A DNA stretch of 45,321 bases from an uncultured Ruminiclostridium sp. (GTDB lineage: Bacteria > Bacillota > Clostridia > Oscillospirales > Ruminococcaceae): assembly GCA_964389845.1 (NCBI GenBank), contig CAYMFX010000002.1:1-45321 (forward strand), given 5' to 3'. Below, one piece after another: positions 27,158 to 35,815 of the stretch (positions within the stretch are counted from its first letter, which is position 1; the number at the start of each line of letters is the position of its first letter). A program made the position numbers and the translations under genes. The notes beneath the pieces are model-generated. The model saw only the letters and a list, made by a program, of their open reading frames with translations. It made no database searches and was not told the DNA's origin.

Positions 27158-28033
27158 ATGAAAAACAAAATTCTTGTAAGCGGCAACAATACTACGTTTA
27201 TAGTAGATTTTATCAGGCACACGGAAACATTTTTCGATTCTATCAGCACCACTACATATTGGAAAGACATTATGGGACACTTTAAGTATTTTTGCCCCGA
27301 CGCGTTTGTGATCTTTGTGGATCCCGGAATGAAGGAAATTTTACCCCGGCTGCGCAAGCTGAAGGACGATGAAGTTTATAACGGCGCCGGGATTTTCCTT
27401 ATTTGCGATTCCGATATTTTTGAAAATCCGGAAACTGTTCTTACGCTTAAATTAGTGGCAAATATGATAATTCGCCGCCCCATTTCCGTTGATAATCTTA
27501 TCCTCACAATAACCAATTACTTTGACAAGCTGAAGGAAGAAAAAGAAAAAACAAAAACCGTGGAAGGATTAAGAAATCTTGCTTCTGCAATCGATTCGGC
27601 GGAAACTGCTAAAGAAACGGAAAATAAGGAAGAAAAAGAGAAATCCACCGCCCAACCGGTTAAGGAAACGAGAAGAAAGAAAATCCTTGTTGTGGACGAC
27701 GACCGCTTAATTTTGAAAATGCTCAAGACCGCCCTCAGCGATAAATATGACGTTATAACTATGGTCAACGGCGTTGTTGCGGAAAGATACCTTGAAAAAG
27801 AATATGTGGATTTAGTTGTTTTAGATTACGAAATGCCTATTGAGACAGGTGCGGACGTATTCAGAAAAATCAAAAATAACCCTAAAATATCACGTACCCC
27901 GATTTGCTTTTTGACGGGAGTTTCCGAAAGGAACAAAATAATGGAGTTAATGTCCTTGAAGCCCCACGGATATTTGCTTAAACCTATTGATATGGATGTT
28001 CTTTTGTCTACTATCAGCAATCTTATCGATTGA
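27158..28033 (+). CDS. Response regulator: degenerate N-terminal REC + intact C-terminal REC, no output domain
   Basis: C-terminal ILVVDDD, VLDYEMP, FLTG and YLLKP. The N-terminal part is REC-like but lacks the acidic pocket. Charged linker between them. Confidence 0.82.
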   Translation: MKNKILVSGNNTTFIVDFIRHTETFFDSISTTTYWKDIMGHFKYFCPDAFVIFVDPGMKEILPRLRKLKDDEVYNGAGIFLICDSDIFENPETVLTLKLVANMIIRRPISVDNLILTITNYFDKLKEEKEKTKTVEGLRNLASAIDSAETAKETENKEEKEKSTAQPVKETRRKKILVVDDDRLILKMLKTALSDKYDVITMVNGVVAERYLEKEYVDLVVLDYEMPIETGADVFRKIKNNPKISRTPICFLTGVSERNKIMELMSLKPHGYLLKPIDMDVLLSTISNLID

Positions 28034-28101
28034 ATAAACGTTGTTTGGAAAATTTAAGCGCTAATACAATCTTTTCACAAAATTATGAAAGGACAATCCG
28101 T

Positions 28102-31056
28102 ATGATTGTAAAAAATCGGGACAGCGGCGGGACAATGGATAACGAAAACAATTTATACATAACCGATTTAATTGACGCAGATACGCTTCAAAAAATACAA
28201 AACGCTTTTTCGGATTTTACGGGTATGGCCGCCCTTACATCGGACAGCAAAGGCGTTCCCGTCACCAAAGGCTCCAACTTTACTGATTTTTGCTTTAAAT
28301 ATACAAGAACTACCGAGCTTGGACGAAGAAGATGTGAAAACTGCGATAAAAACGGCGCTAAAATGACGCTTGAAAGCGGCGGTTCTTGTTATTACCGCTG
28401 TCATGCGGGGCTTATGGATTTTGCGGCGCCGATTATGGCTAACGGAGAAATGATTGGCAGCTTTATAGGAGGACAGGTTCTCACCGAGCCGCCCGATATA
28501 GAAAAAATAAGAGAAGTTGCCGTCGAGCTTGGCATTGACCCCGATAAATATGAGGAAGCGGTAAAAAAGGTTCCTATTGTAAGCGTAGAACGTCTCAATA
28601 GGGCGGCTCATTCTCTTTACGTTTTTTCAACGGCGCTGTCAAATATTGCATATAAGGGCTATACATTTTATTTGAACAATATCGAAATCGAAAAAGCCTC
28701 CAATATGAAATCGGATTTTCTCGCCAATATGAGTCACGAGATACGCACTCCCATGAATGCGGTATTGGGTCTTGCCGACCTTGCGCTGCGTGAGGAAATG
28801 TCTCTTGCCGCAAGAGAATATATACATCAGATAAAGGCGTCGAGCAAAAATCTGCTGGTTATTATCAACGATATTCTTGATTTTTCAAAGATTGAATCGG
28901 GTAAAATGGAAATATTAGAGGTTCAGTATGAACCTCTTTCGCTGATAAACGACCTTACAAGCATTGTGAACAGCCGTATCGGAGATAAGCCTATAGAATT
29001 TACTATGGACATTGCCGCCGACCTGCCGCAAAGCCTGTACGGCGACAATGTGAGAATACATCAGATAATCCTCAATTTGCTGACCAATGCGGTAAAATTC
29101 ACCCGACAGGGAGAGGTGCATCTGAAAATCGGTTTTACGCTTCAGGATAAAGATACCGTGTTTATGAGGGCTGATGTAAGCGATACCGGCATAGGCATAA
29201 AGAAGGAGGATATGGGCAAGCTCTTCAGCTCCTTCCAGCAGGTGAACAGCAAACGGAACAGAAATATCGAGGGCACAGGCTTAGGACTTGCGATTTCAAA
29301 ACAGCTTATTGAGCTGATGAACGGTACAATATCCGTTGAGAGCGAATATGAAAAGGGAACAACATTTTCTTTTGAAATCCCTCAGAAAATCATTAACCCG
29401 GCGCCCATTGTTCCGAAATTGAAGGAGTCCTTCAAGGCGGCTGTGCTTATCGGCAACAGCTATGTTAAAGCGCAACTTATACGGGATCTTAACTGGATAG
29501 GAGCGGAGTACACCGACCTTGAGCATACGGAATCCTTGGACGATTTGCAGGCGGATTATCTCATCATAGAAAAAGTGTTTTTCACTCAGTCGGTACAGGA
29601 TATTCTCCATAATAACCCGAATATGCAGTGCCTTGTACTTGTAAATTTCGACAGCTTGGATGCTGTTAAAATCCCAAACGTAAGAGTTATCAGCAAGCCC
29701 GTGTTCTCACTCAGCCTTTATAATGCAATGGGCATAAAAAAAATAAGCTTTGACGACGGATTTTCTGAAAACGAGGGCTTCACATTTATTGCTCCCGATG
29801 CTCATATTCTGATAGTCGATGATAACGCCGTCAACCTTACGGTTGCAGTAGGCTTGCTTAAGCCGTTAAGAATGCAGATGGACACTTCCACCAGCGCTGC
29901 CGACGCTATTGAAAAAATTCATCATGTAAAATACGATCTTATCTTTATGGATCATATGATGCCCGAGGTTGACGGAATCGAGGCTACTCATATTATCAGA
30001 AGGCTTGTGCCGAGCTACAACGATGTGCCTATTATAGCGCTGACGGCGAACGCAATCGGCGGCGCAAGGGATATGTTCATAAAAGAAGGCATGAACGACT
30101 TTGTCGCAAAGCCTATCGATGTTAAGGACATAGTGTCAAAGCTCAGGAAATGGCTGCCCGGCGAAAAAATACTTCCCGCAGACGCACAGGAGCCCGAAAT
30201 CGAAAAGGATACTTTCGATATTAGCGCAAGCATAGAGGAGCTTTACAAAAAGGGGCTTAACACAAGGGACGCTATATCCCTGCTCGGAAGCGAACAGCTC
30301 TACTGGTCCGTTCTTAAGGAATATTACGGCGCTATCGACAAAAAGTATAAGGATATATCAGAACACAAAAGGGAAGAGCGCTGGCGGGATTACACTATTG
30401 AGGTTCACGCATTGAAAAGCACCTCCCGTCAGATAGGCGCAGCACATATTTCAGAGCTTGCCACCGAAATGGAAAAGGCGGGCAATGAAAAAAATATTGC
30501 GCTTATCAATGAAAAAACAGACCTGATGCTCAAAGAATATATGCTTCTAAAGGAGATGCTTAAGCCGTATTTCACCGGCGGTTCCGAGCATAATGAACGC
30601 ATTGCACAGCTTGAAGACATAATGGTTATGTTAGATAAAATGCAGTGTGCGCTGAAGGAATTTGATGTGCTTCAGGTAGACGAGGTCATCGAGGAAATGT
30701 CGGCGTTCAAATACTCGGACGAAAACGCAGGCTTCTTTGAACAGCTGAACAATGCGGCGCAGAAGGGCGAGATAGAGGAATGTCAGACCATTGTGGAGAA
30801 GTGGGGCGAAAACCTCGTAAACTCAGGTTCTAACGGAGATAAGATTCTTCATGCCTTAGACGCTCTTCAGGTTGCTTTAGATGATTATGATACCCTTGAA
30901 TTAGACGCAGTTATTGAAAAGATGTCGCAAAACAATTACAGCGGCATTAACGAGTTCTTCTTTAAACAGCTGCAAACAGCCGCAGAGAGCGGAGATATTG
31001 ACCTTTGTACGGAAATTTCCAATAATTGGAGCAAAGCGGTGGCGGAAATTTATTAA
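28102..31056 (+). CDS. Cytoplasmic hybrid histidine kinase (PocR sensor-HisKA-HATPase-pseudoREC-REC-Hpt)
   Basis: PocR (NFTDFC, CHAGLMDFAAPI, GGQV), FLANMSHEIRTPMN, NLLTNAVKFT, DTGIG, GTGLGL, FMDHMMP and Hpt VHALKS. Start at 28102 (RBS GAAAGGA) or 28135. Confidence 0.92.
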   Translation: MIVKNRDSGGTMDNENNLYITDLIDADTLQKIQNAFSDFTGMAALTSDSKGVPVTKGSNFTDFCFKYTRTTELGRRRCENCDKNGAKMTLESGGSCYYRCHAGLMDFAAPIMANGEMIGSFIGGQVLTEPPDIEKIREVAVELGIDPDKYEEAVKKVPIVSVERLNRAAHSLYVFSTALSNIAYKGYTFYLNNIEIEKASNMKSDFLANMSHEIRTPMNAVLGLADLALREEMSLAAREYIHQIKASSKNLLVIINDILDFSKIESGKMEILEVQYEPLSLINDLTSIVNSRIGDKPIEFTMDIAADLPQSLYGDNVRIHQIILNLLTNAVKFTRQGEVHLKIGFTLQDKDTVFMRADVSDTGIGIKKEDMGKLFSSFQQVNSKRNRNIEGTGLGLAISKQLIELMNGTISVESEYEKGTTFSFEIPQKIINPAPIVPKLKESFKAAVLIGNSYVKAQLIRDLNWIGAEYTDLEHTESLDDLQADYLIIEKVFFTQSVQDILHNNPNMQCLVLVNFDSLDAVKIPNVRVISKPVFSLSLYNAMGIKKISFDDGFSENEGFTFIAPDAHILIVDDNAVNLTVAVGLLKPLRMQMDTSTSAADAIEKIHHVKYDLIFMDHMMPEVDGIEATHIIRRLVPSYNDVPIIALTANAIGGARDMFIKEGMNDFVAKPIDVKDIVSKLRKWLPGEKILPADAQEPEIEKDTFDISASIEELYKKGLNTRDAISLLGSEQLYWSVLKEYYGAIDKKYKDISEHKREERWRDYTIEVHALKSTSRQIGAAHISELATEMEKAGNEKNIALINEKTDLMLKEYMLLKEMLKPYFTGGSEHNERIAQLEDIMVMLDKMQCALKEFDVLQVDEVIEEMSAFKYSDENAGFFEQLNNAAQKGEIEECQTIVEKWGENLVNSGSNGDKILHALDALQVALDDYDTLELDAVIEKMSQNNYSGINEFFFKQLQTAAESGDIDLCTEISNNWSKAVAEIY

Positions 31057-31094
31057 CAATAGGATCTGTAAAAAAGCACATTACCGTGCGAGGT

Positions 31095-31547
31095 AATACT
31101 ATTTATATTTTAAAAGTAGACAAATTGATTTGCTTTTTCACAAGTGCGCAATTATCTGTCTTTCACACCTTACGGTGCAGTTAAACCCGCTCCCCGCGGG
31201 GGGCTTAGGTGGACACCATGGGGAGAGGGGGCAAGTACAAACCCACCAAAGCGGGGACTTTCCCCCTCTCCCCAAGGTTTCCACCTAAGAACCGCTTCCT
31301 TGCCCCTCTCCCCCTTTTCCCCGCTTTGGAAGTAGTGCTTGCTATAATGGTTTTACTCTCGGTTCTATTTTTGCAAAGAGCGGGCTGGTATTGCGTTCGT
31401 TAAAGCTGTGGTACGGACTTGCTTTGTGGCGGCTCCTTATGCGATATAGGCGGTGCAATTAAATGTTAAGATGCTGTCACAACAATGTGCTGCCATTTGA
31501 GTGCTTGTTACAATGTTTTTGTCTTATTTTAATCGATAATTAGTATA
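31095..31547. mobile_element. Putative ~450 bp non-autonomous TIR element (MITE-like) with structured core
   Basis: Left end AATACTATTTATATTTTAAAAGTAGACAAA vs reverse complement of right end TATACTAATTATCGATTAAAATAAGACAAA. Internal GC-rich inverted repeats and no credible ORF. Confidence 0.5.
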
Positions 31548-31582
31548 AAACCTCGCAAAGATACAACTGCCTATCATAAAAC

Positions 31583-31643
31583 AGGGGACGCCCTCTCTTG
31601 CAGGGCGTCCCCTCTTACAAAAACGCCCCACTGGGGAGTTTTG
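31583..31643. repeat. Two REP-like GC hairpins
   Basis: AGGGGACGCCCT-CTCTTGC-AGGGCGTCCCCT and AAAACGCCCCA-C-TGGGGAGTTTT. Confidence 0.6.
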
Positions 31644-31649
31644 GAATTC

Positions 31650-31703
31650 ATACTATTAACCGATTAAAAACCGTTTTTCCAATTTTTAATCGGTTAATAG
31701 TAT
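31650..31703. repeat. Perfect 21 bp inverted repeat (ATACTA...TAGTAT type); may terminate the minus-strand operon
   Basis: ATACTATTAACCGATTAAAAA (31650-31670) / TTTTTAATCGGTTAATAGTAT (31683-31703). Confidence 0.85.
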
Positions 31704-31761
31704 TAATCGGGCTTTCAAGAAAGATGATTATGTTACAACTTTAGTTTTTTACAGCTCCAAA

Positions 31762-33759
31762 TTATATCTGAGAATTTATGCTTTTTGCGGCAGTACCTAT
31801 TCCAAAATTAAACATTGCATTTCCAAGCGCCGACTTAAAATATTTGTTTTTGTCATTGCCCGCAAACATAAAGGGAGCATAAGCGTCGCTGCCCGAAATA
31901 TCAAGCATATAAGGATAGTCGGAAAAATGCTTCAGATAGTCATTGCAGAAATCCATTGCGCCGCTGTGTATAAGGCGAACCGTCTCTGCGTTTCCTTCTT
32001 CGTTTTCCGTAAATACGGGATTCCCGTCAGCGTCAAATTCCTTTAAGGAAGGGCTTTCCGAACCGAGAAGCATTTCAAAAAAGGCGTTATGCCCCTGAAA
32101 AGCGTCGTGATATTCGTAAATATGACGGTTATGGCGCTGAGAATAGCAGTAAGCATACGCTTTCCCGCTTTGTATAAGTCCCTCGGAGGCGTCGGGCTGT
32201 TCGCTGAAGCTGTCGTTTGTTCCTGCAATAACGCCTATTATCTCGGTTTCATAGCCCCATTTTTTGCAGAGTGCGGCAATAGCTGCGCCGCCGCTTCCCG
32301 CCCAGCCCACGTCTACCGTTAAAGCTCTTTTGCTGTCCGACAGCATTTGCGAAAAATACTTCTTTGCCCCTTTTTCACAGCAGGAATAAATTTCTTTTAC
32401 CGACTTTCTGTTGTTTATGATAAATATTCCCAATTCCATATAGTTTTTTTCGTTGATAACAGTATCCTTAAAAGGACAGGAATCGGTTAAACCGACTAAC
32501 CCCATTTGCTCCAAAAGCTTTGATGCGGTAAGATTATTGCCGCATTTATGATAAATAAAGCGTCTAATAAAATCAAAGGTGTTTTCCTCAAAGCACAGCT
32601 TGATTGCCGTAAGCCTTGACCACAGAAAATACTCGGTGTTATCATCGGGATAAAGCTTGTTGTAAACACGTTTAAGTAAATCGCCGTCTCTTGCCAAAAA
32701 CAAGACCTTATCGGCATTCCGCTCGGTAAAGATACGGTGAATGAAATTGCAGTAGCCGAGGACAAAAATCCCGCTGTAAACATAACCGTATTCGTAAAGG
32801 ACAGGGTATGTCTTAACGCCGCTGTGAAGCTTTATGTTTACTGTTCCGGAATATGCGCTTCCGATTATCCTGCTCATTTCATAGGGACGGTAGGGAGCAC
32901 CGCAGCTGTTTACGTTATTGCAGGGAAATGCGGTAAATCCGTTTTCCGTGCTTTTTTCAATATCGCTGTGCAGATTATCGCCCACATGAGCAAGCTTCCC
33001 CTTCGGCATAAGCTCCTTAGCCCTTGCATACAAAAGTCCGTCATTCTTTGAGCAGCCATACTTATTTGATACAAGCAGTTTTTCAAAGCCTTCAAAACCG
33101 TTTTTTATCAAAAGCTTTTCCAAAAAATCGGATTTCAGGTACATATCGGAAATAATAAAAAGCTTTGTTCCGTTTTTCTTCAAAATGTCCCAGACCCTTT
33201 TCATATAAGGATTTCCGCAGCACAACCTCATTTCGGCTTTCAGCTCGGTTTCCTTTGCCGCCCCGTAGTCCGTGCCGATATACGTATTGATGTAATCGTA
33301 AATATCGTCTATGTCAATCTCATAGCTGCCGTTTAAGTTATGCTGCTTCTCACGGGCTTCACGTTCACACTGCTCCCTTATCTCGGCAAAGTTAAGAAGC
33401 CCCGTTTCCGCTCCCACAATATGAAATAAATCGGCAGGCGCAGCAAAGGGACGCTGTATCAGGGTATCGAAAATGTCAAAGGAAACGGCGTCAAAGCCCG
33501 AAAGCTTTTCGGCAAGCTCTTCGGGAGACATTTTATAATAAAGCTTGCTTTCCGGACCGTCACAGCAGGGCTTTCCCTTACGTTTTCCATATCCCGAAAG
33601 CCTTTTATCTCTCAGAATGTGATAGGAAAAATTGAGCCTGAACAGATAAACGGCTCTTTTTAACGGCGAATTTCCCTGAGCCTTATATTTGACATATAAC
33701 CGCCTTATCGGAGGCTCTTTTGCAACCAAAATATCATAAATTTTCTTCTTTAATTTCAA
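31762..33759 (-). CDS. HAD phosphatase + PRTase-like fusion; putative bifunctional ribofuranosyltransferase
   Basis: HAD motifs SFDIFDTL, ISDMY and HVGDNLHSD, then FLARDG and TVDVGWAGS. TTG start after AGGGAG. Confidence 0.7.
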   Translation of the reverse strand: MKLKKKIYDILVAKEPPIRRLYVKYKAQGNSPLKRAVYLFRLNFSYHILRDKRLSGYGKRKGKPCCDGPESKLYYKMSPEELAEKLSGFDAVSFDIFDTLIQRPFAAPADLFHIVGAETGLLNFAEIREQCEREAREKQHNLNGSYEIDIDDIYDYINTYIGTDYGAAKETELKAEMRLCCGNPYMKRVWDILKKNGTKLFIISDMYLKSDFLEKLLIKNGFEGFEKLLVSNKYGCSKNDGLLYARAKELMPKGKLAHVGDNLHSDIEKSTENGFTAFPCNNVNSCGAPYRPYEMSRIIGSAYSGTVNIKLHSGVKTYPVLYEYGYVYSGIFVLGYCNFIHRIFTERNADKVLFLARDGDLLKRVYNKLYPDDNTEYFLWSRLTAIKLCFEENTFDFIRRFIYHKCGNNLTASKLLEQMGLVGLTDSCPFKDTVINEKNYMELGIFIINNRKSVKEIYSCCEKGAKKYFSQMLSDSKRALTVDVGWAGSGGAAIAALCKKWGYETEIIGVIAGTNDSFSEQPDASEGLIQSGKAYAYCYSQRHNRHIYEYHDAFQGHNAFFEMLLGSESPSLKEFDADGNPVFTENEEGNAETVRLIHSGAMDFCNDYLKHFSDYPYMLDISGSDAYAPFMFAGNDKNKYFKSALGNAMFNFGIGTAAKSINSQI

Positions 33760-33762
33760 TTG

Positions 33763-34578
33763 TTATGCTCCCTTATGAGATTTTCTTTTAAAGACAAGGT
33801 TTTTTATGTTAGCCAGCAGCTTTGGCGGTATAAGCCCCACTACAAGCGGCTTTATAAGAAAGATTATTCCAATGGGATAGAGCCTGAGCTTTTTGAAGCC
33901 CTCGGCTTTTACCCGTACTTCCTTGACCTTGTCCGAGTATTTGCGGCGGGAAACGGCGGATTGATTTTCATTAAAGGCATACAGTCTTTCCGAAAGATTT
34001 ATGCCCTTTGCACCCAATGAATACATAGTCATAAAAAGGGCGTATTCCTCACAGCGTGCGGTTTTTTTGGAAACAGGGTACATACCCGCTTTTTCAACAG
34101 AGGTTTTCTTCAATGCGCAAGCCCCGTGCATAAACGGGACGGCAAAAAGAAAGTCTTTTTTCCCCGGTGAATCGGGATAATCACGGTGTCCCCACTCCCC
34201 GCCCTCGTCAAAAAGAATAATATCCGAGGCAACAATATCGCATCGGTTTTTTTTGTATTCGGATATAAGACGCTCAAAACGGCGGGGAAGGGAATAATCG
34301 TCAGCGTCCTGCCTTATGAGCAATTCTCCCCCTGCCTGTTCAATGCAGCGGTTAAGGGAATAAGCGCAGCCCATATTGGCTTCGTTTCTGATATACACTA
34401 TTCTTTCATCGTCAAATGAATCTATAATATCCTTTACATAAGCCTTTGAACAGTCGTCGCATATCACAAATTCAAACTCTTCGTACTCCTGTGAAAGGAC
34501 GGAGCTTATTGCACGGCGCAGCTCGTTTGGCTCAGGATTATACACGGGCATAATTACCGATACGGTAAGGGAATTCAT
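33763..34578 (-). CDS. Glycosyltransferase family 2
   Basis: VSVIMPVYN, ICDDCS, RQDADD. Confidence 0.92.
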   Translation of the reverse strand: MNSLTVSVIMPVYNPEPNELRRAISSVLSQEYEEFEFVICDDCSKAYVKDIIDSFDDERIVYIRNEANMGCAYSLNRCIEQAGGELLIRQDADDYSLPRRFERLISEYKKNRCDIVASDIILFDEGGEWGHRDYPDSPGKKDFLFAVPFMHGACALKKTSVEKAGMYPVSKKTARCEEYALFMTMYSLGAKGINLSERLYAFNENQSAVSRRKYSDKVKEVRVKAEGFKKLRLYPIGIIFLIKPLVVGLIPPKLLANIKNLVFKRKSHKGA

Positions 34579-34591
34579 TATATTATTCCTT

Positions 34592-35815
34592 TCATTTGCG
34601 TTTTATCAGCCACAATATTTCCCACAATCTCAGATTTAATCGGCAAAAGCTCCCTTTTCCGCTTAATACCGCCGTAGCGTAGCCCCAATAAACGGGCTTT
34701 TGGAGATTTCCCTTTTTAAAAAGCTTTTCCATTATCCTTGGAATGAGGTAAAGCCGCTTTGTGTCGCCTGTTTTCTCTGCCAACGGAAAGCTGTACAGCT
34801 CTGAAGGGTCGTCGGAAAATCTCAGATTGCCGTATTCCTCCGCCGTGTCCTTGTCGGGATTGTACATCAGCTTGTCGAGAAGGGGAAATGCAAATTCTTG
34901 ACGTTCCTTGATACCGTATTCTTTTTTTGCAATTACTCCGTTCTTATCGGCATAATCCTCAATAAGCCGCTTTTGCTCAACAATAATCCTATGCTCAAGG
35001 TTTAAGCTTTTTTCTTCCTTTAGCAGGGGTACAATTTTGTTTTCTTCCTTTCCGTAGCCCACAGTCATTCCGTGCGGCGCGCTGCATAAGGCTTCAAAAA
35101 GGTGATTGTTGAATTTGGAGACAAGCAGGGGAGAAGTATTTTTATCAAAAAGGTAGGTGTAAAAATCCCCGTCCTCCCTATTTGCTTCGGAGTACATTCC
35201 GAAGTAAAAGCCTGTCTGTTTTCGCTTTGTCAAAATACGGAGCATACGCTGCATAGAACCCGTCCAGCCGCTGTCAACAACGGCATAGGGGGTATCGGAA
35301 AGCAATCCCTCCTGTTCCAGATAATAAACGGCGTTTTCCTTGACAGACTGTGAAACGGATTTTATATAGTCGTTGTAAACCTTTGATTTTTTCAGCTTGC
35401 CGCAAAATTCCGCTGCGGCGGCTTTCCCCATTTCCGTTTCTTCATTGCCGCTGTAATTAATATCTGAGTAAACTCGATTTCTTTCCTCATCGGACAATGT
35501 CAGCCTGCTCAATATTACCTTTGGAGTAAGGGCAAAGCCGCCCTCTAACAGATAGCGGTACGCCTCCTCCCCCAAATCCGACAATGCGGCTGTTCTGAGC
35601 GACAATCTTGAACAGTAAAGATACCTGAGCTCAATATCAAGATTGTTCTTTTCGGCAATAATTCGGGCGGCGTTATACATTATATATCCGTCCCTCGCCA
35701 AAAAGTACAATCGCCTTATACCCATTTCACCTGCCGATTTCAGAACCCACTTATCAAAATCGGTTATAACGGCGGGCATAACAAATTGTGTCGGTGTGTT
35801 AGTTTTATTTTTCAC
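34592..35815 (-). CDS. Stand-alone PRTase-like domain paralogous to the C-terminal half of 31762-33759
   Basis: YFLARDGY, SRLSL, VVDSGWTGSMQ and FEALCSAPHG. No HAD motifs. GTG start. Confidence 0.65.
   Translation of the reverse strand: MKNKTNTPTQFVMPAVITDFDKWVLKSAGEMGIRRLYFLARDGYIMYNAARIIAEKNNLDIELRYLYCSRLSLRTAALSDLGEEAYRYLLEGGFALTPKVILSRLTLSDEERNRVYSDINYSGNEETEMGKAAAAEFCGKLKKSKVYNDYIKSVSQSVKENAVYYLEQEGLLSDTPYAVVDSGWTGSMQRMLRILTKRKQTGFYFGMYSEANREDGDFYTYLFDKNTSPLLVSKFNNHLFEALCSAPHGMTVGYGKEENKIVPLLKEEKSLNLEHRIIVEQKRLIEDYADKNGVIAKKEYGIKERQEFAFPLLDKLMYNPDKDTAEEYGNLRFSDDPSELYSFPLAEKTGDTKRLYLIPRIMEKLFKKGNLQKPVYWGYATAVLSGKGSFCRLNLRLWEILWLIKRK

Follow-up and report, generated by a model that had tools for sequence, protein, structure and literature searches.

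The window analysed here (45,321 nucleotides of contig CAYMFX010000002.1 from an uncultured Ruminiclostridium sp., assembly GCA_964389845.1) contains a spacer between two convergent genes, a hybrid sensor kinase gene on the plus strand and a 665-aa ORF on the minus strand. The latter belongs to a minus-strand cluster (31762-35815) in which the 665-aa and a 407-aa ORF look alike by eye and which also includes a probable glycosyltransferase. In the spacer lies a copy of a MITE-like repeat, here called the host repeat, into which a non-coding element of 449 bp has been inserted, and this element carries a structured core of 126 bases (31204-31329). The features are listed in Table 1. The sequence-only reading had treated the region as one non-coding element with inverted-repeat ends and a structured centre. 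Every motif that it listed is present at its coordinate and the observation is real, but it comprises two things, a MITE wrapper and an independently dispersed repeat carried as cargo.

Table 1 Features of the locus, with positions numbered as in the window
Feature	Position	Strand	Remark
Hybrid sensor kinase gene (PocR, HisKA, HATPase_c, receiver), left neighbour	28030-31056	+	stops 6 bp short of the host repeat
Host repeat, second MITE-like family, GGGGCTGTAAAAAA-type ends	31062-31758		697 bp here, i.e. 245 + 452 inserted
Left target duplication, TAA	31094-31096		empty sites carry one TAA
Non-coding MITE, wrapper and cargo, TACTA...TAGTA ends	31097-31545		449 bp; filled compared with empty sites
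Left terminal inverted repeat, IS630-type	31097-31124	+	22/28 match to right end; transposase genes follow similar ends
Hairpin arm 1, purine-rich on plus strand; pyrimidine strand of predicted minus-strand triplex	31204-31236	-	
Connecting loop, AAACCC conserved (read on plus strand)	31237-31245	-	invariant in alignment A1; partly fixed by search pattern
Pseudoknot helix, strand within hairpin loop	31246-31257	-	
Hairpin arm 2, purine strand of predicted minus-strand triplex	31257-31289	-	
Third strand, mirror of arm 2, G/A-rich on minus strand, predicted reverse-Hoogsteen	31290-31317	-	
Pseudoknot helix, outer strand, clamps third strand	31318-31329	-	
Right arm from internal TAA	31467-31545	+	C28 copy: inverted left TACTA end at that TAA
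Right terminal inverted repeat, IS630-type	31518-31545	-	22/28 match to left end
Right target duplication, TAA	31546-31548		joint in run X9, 31093 to 31546, 3 shared letters
GC hairpin of host repeat, terminator-like on minus strand	31583-31613	-	
52-bp mini-MITE, TACTA ends, inside host repeat	31651-31702		flanks TCA and TTA, imperfect duplication
665-aa ORF, right neighbour, convergent	31762-33759	-	no Pfam match at 1e-4

The inverted-repeat ends of the wrapper were confirmed, and its limits were corrected from 31095-31547 to the true ends 31097 and 31545; the repeat finder reported terminal arms of 29 nt. As regards the pairing proposed further inward, the 12-mer pair consists of nine Watson-Crick pairs, two G.T pairs and one mismatch and lies outside the MFE fold, and the CCCGCTC/GAGCGGG pair is present, yet intact in only two of five own-genome copies. 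In the same genome the two flanks of the element were found joined without the insert: nine of twelve candidate contigs examined (C62, C46, C204, C34, C125, C237, C13, C6 and C124) have a continuous empty site with a single TAA-type target, and the remaining three (C28, C95 and C135) are diverged. In rodent-gut sequencing runs the element was several-fold deeper than its flanks by summed contig depth, which is not a copy number, and the same element occurred with other flanks in runs X8, X11 and X13. A joint that skips 452 bases, with three shared letters, was seen in run X9 and may stem from another copy of the host repeat; none of the runs had the exact window locus empty between unique flanks on both sides. 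Two runs that had been taken for RNA are labelled as probably DNA.

The target duplication of the wrapper family is 3 bp long. A scan for similar ends gave 77, of which 73 follow TNA (TTA 34, TAA 30, TCA 5, TGA 4), and the duplication is perfect in 13 of 15 paired TACTA elements. Since one pair duplicates TCA on both sides, the reading of a TA target is excluded. The earlier description of the element as MITE-like is thus upheld by the empty sites, the target duplications and the cognate transposase genes, but the TA dinucleotide duplication of an IS630-mobilised MITE, which it had anticipated, is replaced by a 3-bp TNA duplication. Most paired TACTA elements are 157 or 179 bp long and lack the core. 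As these short MITEs, with the same ends and duplication, have spread without it, the suggestion of a structure used for mobilising the MITE is not supported.

The TACTA ends lead to transposase genes. In the own genome, one such end (C201) leads into an ORF with HTH_23, HTH_29, HTH_32 and HTH_33 domains and another (C69) into an interrupted homologue, and G021 (locus L100) has a complete element of 1.1 kb that is bounded by TACTA-type ends, flanked by TTA on either side and equipped with HTH_33 and DDE_3 domains in interrupted frames. All three copies are truncated or interrupted. We take the HTH and DDE_3 domains of these genes to be a mark of the IS630 family. An IS5/PIF-type partner, prompted by the 3-bp duplication, was rejected, as DDE_Tnp_4 was not found in the own genome and the genes reached from the ends are of the IS630 type. 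Apart from its unusual 3-bp duplication, the wrapper is close to an ordinary IS630-type MITE, and it was likely moved in trans by an IS630-type transposase from elsewhere. On contig C28 of the own genome (positions 1-481) a left end with a core lies inverted inside a copy of the right arm, at the TAA that matches window position 31467. The element in the window may have been put together from the ends of two elements.

RUP and other IS630-mobilised MITEs resemble the wrapper in that they are non-coding, have ends in common with an IS630 element and enter other mobile DNA, as described in the accessible part of the review by Delihas (PMC2229807). According to the same text, RUP goes with IS630-Spn1, which uses TA targets, so the 3-bp duplication of the wrapper is a departure. 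The wrapper further differs from RUP-type MITEs in its length, 449 bp compared to under 200 bp, and in its unrelated structured cargo. In the literature searched, no report of an IS630-type 3-bp duplication was found.

The host repeat has four other paired copies of 37-300 bp in the own genome (C6, C34, C62 and C168), and its GGGGCTGTAAAAAA-type ends gave 51 matches compared to 22 for the control. No target duplication was detected for this family, and no transposase or partner gene for its ends was found. The family wraps cores in G001 and G008 as well. Copies of the 52-bp mini-MITE that lies inside the host repeat are present on contigs C218, C120, C39, C130 and C19.

The core is dispersed independently. 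The copy-number check that had been proposed gave five full cores in the own genome (C2, C21, C24, C28 and C30), in addition to four partial ones, and matches in related genomes. In BLAST searches with the whole element as query 5 of 60 other genomes matched, three of them with a full core, and with the core as query 4 of 300 family genomes matched, of which three were real. Real matches to the core were obtained in 3 of 36 congeners in one draw and in 3 of 300 family genomes in another; the rows dropped were G029 (terminal inverted repeat only), G033 (a 32-bp piece) and G271 (a coding stretch). A two-part pattern searched over all GTDB species gave 43 matches, of which 32 were real, from nine genomes titled Ruminococcus, Oscillospiraceae, Ruminococcaceae, Ruminiclostridium or Clostridia and from one titled Bacteroides, a label that we doubt. 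In metagenomes, 6 of 14 pattern matches were real. The 11 genome and 8 metagenome matches that were dropped lacked the hairpin. As the pattern fixes the loop and the clamp, distant relatives would be missed. No blastn match was obtained in plasmids or phages, and there were no pattern matches in IMG/VR.

Basal motif counts were 67 in G001, 17 in G020, 7 in G008, 4 in G783 and 6 in G784, with none in the reversed control. Many contigs of G008, G020 and G001 end inside the core or at TACTA ends, and therefore the core counts for these three genomes are lower bounds. An order-wide search with an 18-mer and one mismatch was too loose and returned mostly noise; it was kept for the counts of the own genome (G000, 10) and of G234 (6).

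TACTA ends could be scored at 30 core loci, leaving out eight loci that were too short and the unparsed C28. Both ends with a duplication were present at three loci, one end at ten and none at 17, which means that the core is not tied to the wrapper. Loci L058 and L069 are two-ended by eye, with matching triplets, and other cores are bounded by GGGGCTGTAAAAA-type or different ends. In relatives, empty orthologous spacers were found: at one site they measure 45 and 31 bp compared to about 880 bp, and the fliP-fliQ spacer is 74 bp when empty and about 880 bp when filled. The 60 genes nearest to cores are unrelated housekeeping genes, no transposase was found among their 60 proteins, and the orientation of the core to its neighbours is unbiased (20:12 and 16:12). 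A role as a cis-regulator of one gene class was rejected on these grounds, and no sigma-70-like site was found.

Several further observations were made around the cores. Recurring neighbours are aspS, glutamate synthase and flhA-fliA, and at L037 and L080 the cores adjoin dnaA (dnaA-dnaN and dnaA-rnpA). Downstream of the core, the first 150 bases have a high G+T content on the plus strand (mean 0.65, with 29 of 32 loci above 0.55), and these flanks often hold degenerate tandem repeats. Small REP-like hairpins are inserted in cores at fixed places (C28:166-231 and C30:17547-17611 in the own genome, and L021, L048, L170, L213 and L214); the same insert is present in two core subtypes, the rest of the core being intact. 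At about 1900-2060 of L054 there is a second core, inverted and more diverged, about 400 bases away and in a TACTA-ended unit of its own. Shorter three-block repeats of G and C runs, consisting of a hairpin and a mirror run and having other sequence, were seen within the same spacers in L006 (G033:C72), C145 and C185 of the own genome, L034 and L049.

The Watson-Crick part of the fold consists of a hairpin with 33-nt arms that are 91% complementary and a crossing helix of 12 perfect base pairs. Folding z-scores were -5.8 on the plus and -5.5 on the minus strand, and 0 of 100 shuffles were as stable on either strand. The window gave no Rfam match at the gathering threshold and no family at an E-value threshold, with sub-threshold matches of a generic hairpin type only, and the judgement that the structure lies outside known Rfam classes agrees with this. 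When 28 distinct hairpins were aligned, Watson-Crick pairs filled 867 of 975 columns, and a C.T mismatch as well as an irregularity near the centre returned at constant positions. The covariation check that had been suggested was performed on the 32 sequences of alignment A1, restricted to the outer stem and the clamp and with the structure taken from one member: 92.3% of cells pair, compared to 85.8% in shuffles and at most 59% in slid controls, and 47 double changes were counted compared to 13.4 in shuffles. The number of pairs with a double change, six, was not beyond that of the shuffles (58/500). In the clamp helix one compensatory pair occurs in 4 of the 32 sequences, two cells are mismatched and the end pair is lost in 14. 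The crossing helix of the sequence-only reading, i.e. the pseudoknot, is supported, with the compensatory pair in its favour.

The third strand is a mirror image of the second hairpin arm. In the window the tract 31303-31317 mirrors 31258-31272 and is not its repeat, and the second pairing partner earlier seen at 31299-31314 is this mirror repeat, giving a far weaker duplex (-19.4 compared to -33.4 kcal/mol). Third bases were counted in minus-strand letters for 26 distinct tracts that had been brought into register by their C columns only, two rows being without a partner arm; the sequences are related and the counts therefore overstate the independent events. Opposite G the third base was G in 262, A in 17 and T in 3 of 282 columns, i.e. 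20 columns were mismatched, and opposite A it was A in 22 and T in 14, one or the other in all 36. C was never present. Opposite C there were eight T and two A, both of the latter from the truncated L089, and T is the third base tolerated at such C-G inversions. According to PMC6158708, inversions are bound stably by none of the natural bases. The triads G*GC, A*AT and T*AT are those of the purine motif in the accessible text of Holder et al. (2015, PMC4666352), the first two being so described in PMC6158708 as well, and third strands of G and T favour antiparallel binding (PMC4807104). The letters of the core conform to purine-motif triads across three blocks on one strand.

Orientations of the third strand were compared over 25 distinct pairs. 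The fit was 0.936 for the mirror orientation, 0.878 for the direct orientation and 0.878 for a plus-strand parallel code, and in 17 asymmetric tracts the mirror orientation was better in 12, tied in five and worse in none. When third strands were swapped between 16 tract types, the observed fit of 0.945 was reached in 0 of 5000 swaps (mean 0.819, maximum 0.897). The outer third of the predicted triplex is irregular in several groups. Between copies, the third tract tracks the length and the interruptions of the hairpin, which is hard to explain without selection on three-strand contacts, since ordinary copying would be expected to make direct or inverted repeats and not mirror repeats.

A second variant was found in G001 and G020, where the basal stem is retained in all 16 copies fetched and the third strand is shortened to match it (14 of the 16 have 6 G, 6 C and 6 C), with the pseudoknot apex replaced by an extension of 85-110 nt. 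As this clamp-less variant keeps the basal stem together with a matched third strand, the triplex base appears to be a conserved module and the clamp optional. In ten long-apex copies the three strands were 0.97, 0.99 and 0.98 identical, compared to 0.69 and 0.67 for the flanks and 0.64 for the loop, and five short-apex copies agree with this pattern. The comparison left out L170, L173 and L174, which contain Ns or insertions, as well as L172, whose apex is deleted; L226 and L215 owed their selection to the core motif. Between two species, identity at the flhA-fliA site is 0.91 in the core and 0.60-0.64 in the flanks, with 65 of 97 fourfold sites of fliA identical. At another shared site the two species carry different, internally compensated cores, each like the copies of its own genome; this one orthologous pair suggests that cores are homogenised within a genome. 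Since the three strands vary together across gut-bacterial species, as expected of a triple helix, selection has likely maintained the core as a folded structure of single-stranded DNA.

The triad code, the wobble asymmetry and the geometry of the pseudoknot point to the minus strand as the one that would fold. Wobbles of the type A.C on the plus strand, i.e. G.T on the minus strand, were counted 12 times and G.T on the plus strand twice, perhaps representing four to five independent events. In an H-type pseudoknot the first loop runs along the major groove of the second stem and the other loop crosses the minor groove. On the minus strand the blocks of the core follow each other as third strand, purine arm and pyrimidine arm, which is the order of the class I purine motif in the accessible text of Holder et al. 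(PMC4666352). It is also stated there that purine-motif triplexes cannot form in RNA, and hence DNA is favoured over RNA; of the two polymers left open by the sequence-only reading, the triad code would favour minus-strand DNA.

We consider it unlikely that the core is instead a plus-strand structured RNA, a pseudoknot with a parallel pyrimidine triple helix that would act as a stability element or ribozyme on read-through transcripts. It is true that the plus strand folds well (z -5.8), that the window copy lies downstream of a plus-strand gene and that its inner tract is perfect under the parallel code, fitting both codes equally; in the window's own subfamily one outer column even fits G*TA, a parallel-motif triad, better. 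However, 14 of the 36 third-strand bases opposite A-T pairs are A on the plus strand, which the parallel code disallows, so the tracts do not conform to U*AU and C+*GC, and 4 of 25 tracts are perfect under the plus code compared to 9 under the minus code. On the plus strand the third strand would furthermore be the loop that crosses the minor groove, the wobbles favour the minus strand, and neither the unbiased orientation to neighbours nor the Rfam scan speaks for an RNA. It is very improbable that the G and C runs were selected as a G-quadruplex or i-motif, or as mutually exclusive Watson-Crick helices, with the mirror symmetry as a by-product. Both strands do have several runs of 4-6 G, and the third tract of the window can pair with arm 1 at the -19.4 kcal/mol given above. 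A quadruplex needs no hairpin register, yet the run lengths and interruptions track the hairpin, and the direct-repeat orientation needed for a switch was never the better one in the 17 asymmetric tracts. At 31302, the position by which the alternative helix is lengthened, other copies and strains have A, and because the third tract covaries as a mirror image the switch proposed earlier is not supported.

Improbable, too, is the explanation that the DNA triplex is real but kept for the host, for instance as a protein-binding, replication-pausing or chromosome-organising site, and that it has spread passively inside MITEs. The cores that remain intact at an orthologous site where the flanks decay at about the rate of fourfold sites, the two copies beside dnaA and the several wrapper types that carry the core would all agree with a host function. 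The patchy distribution of the core in congeners and family genomes, motif copy numbers ranging from 4 to 67, orthologous sites that are empty in relatives and the unrelated neighbouring genes argue against it.

The preferred reading, which we hold with moderate confidence, is that a 449-bp MITE was inserted at TAA in another repeat, likely by an IS630-type transposase from elsewhere, and that its core is a separate dispersed repeat predicted to fold as a minus-strand single-stranded DNA pseudoknot with a long purine-motif triple helix. Read 5' to 3' on the minus strand, the fold would comprise a clamp strand, the G/A-rich third strand, the purine arm, the clamp partner, a short loop and the pyrimidine arm. 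The result would be an H-type pseudoknot in which the first loop occupies the major groove of the 33-bp stem and runs antiparallel to the purine arm. Such a fold would form when the strand is exposed in replication or transcription, and the folded core would be a site of stalling or cleavage that is repaired from sister copies. Through such repair the cores of a genome would stay intact and become alike, and now and then a new site would be seeded; core sites would collect other repeats, and a core would at times be captured and carried by paired IS630 ends. PIT elements block DNA polymerase in vitro and had no effect in vivo in the accessible account of Holder et al. (PMC4666352), and for this reason the cycle of stalling or cutting followed by repair is put forward as a commitment and not as a result.

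A bolder proposal, which we rate as rather unlikely, sees in the core the unit that replicates, and in such units a class of non-coding mobile DNA not recognised so far, whose defining trait would be a fold, the clamped triple-helix knot of a single DNA strand. The core would copy and repair itself through a fold-reading host enzyme or, as a natural deoxyribozyme, by chemistry of its own, with IS630 or other MITE ends as no more than occasional vehicles. Y1_Tnp, the RAYT domain, was found in one of the five carrier genomes (86-99% complete), although draft assemblies may have lost it, and DUF559 gave a weak match inside a 1557-aa frame in one of five. RAYT and DUF559 were rejected as movers of the core, each not being found in four of the five genomes with the queries used. 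No gene was present between the arms in eight unpaired G001 loci; the other seven of the 15 regions fetched ran into contig ends. An enzyme acting on the core was not found in these assemblies, which are fragmented and often broken inside repeats.

Mosaics of the REP, REPIN and BIME type, with RAYT, are dispersed structured DNA repeats clustered between genes that probably act as single-stranded DNA. The core differs from REP and REPIN in having no GTAG-type tag and a three-stranded fold, and in the scarcity of Y1_Tnp, which was also absent from the 60 neighbours. In telomerase RNA an H-type pseudoknot has a major-groove triple helix with a U-rich, parallel third strand. The minus strand of the core is alike in topology, the first loop running along the second stem, and differs in that its third strand is G/A-rich, antiparallel to the purine strand, several times longer and predicted to be DNA. 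Extended TwoAYGGAY elements are, like the core, multi-copy and intergenic with a long stem, a pseudoknot and repetitive flanks (bioRxiv 10.64898/2026.09.22.753630). The core gave no match to TwoAYGGAY in Rfam and occurs in a different phylum, and the accessible main text of that preprint does not use the word 'triplex'.

BoxC, PIT and TM-ECO repeats and the core are alike in being intergenic and multi-copy, without strand bias, and in their G*GC, A*AT and T*AT triads, as far as the accessible text of Holder et al. (2015, PMC4666352) describes the former; the core shows no bias for gene class either. The stem of the core is about 33 bp and its third strand 28 nt, compared to the 6-15 nt searched in that study, and the ITxF definition (stem of 6-15 nt, loops of 1-6 nt) covers neither this stem with its 20-nt loop nor the 85-110-nt apex of the second variant. 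Unlike these repeats, the core has a hairpin loop closed by a 12-bp pseudoknot helix, conserved internal mismatches and three-strand covariation across species. Compared by eye, it does not fit the TM-ECO consensus, and it is found inside MITEs, whereas TM-ECO is described in the accessible text as not found with mobile elements (PMC4666352). The E. coli motif folds in vitro according to the same text, in which DMS footprints in vivo gave no stable triplex and the double-stranded form stayed duplex. In a literature search covering few subscription papers, this was the only primary study of intrastrand triplex repeats that we found, and nothing was found on a pseudoknot-clamped form or on three-strand covariation. 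The best reading of the core is as a putative long, clamped variant of the BoxC/TM repeats, captured here by IS630 ends. The cargo would work like these triplex repeats but fails their definition in size and sequence, and the comparative support for it is unusually good.

For the intrastrand DNA triplex motif of E. coli, no stable triplex or function was seen in vivo in the accessible results of Holder et al. (PMC4666352). The fold predicted here is much longer than the catalogued triplex motifs, and as clamped and clamp-less forms and differing triads occur in nature, test pairs are ready at hand. The wrapper, with its 3-bp duplication, belongs to an IS630-type family that has taken up this cargo in at least two species. 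In the cores, the sequences themselves speak for selection on the third strand, and they point to the strand and the polymer in which the triple helix would form.
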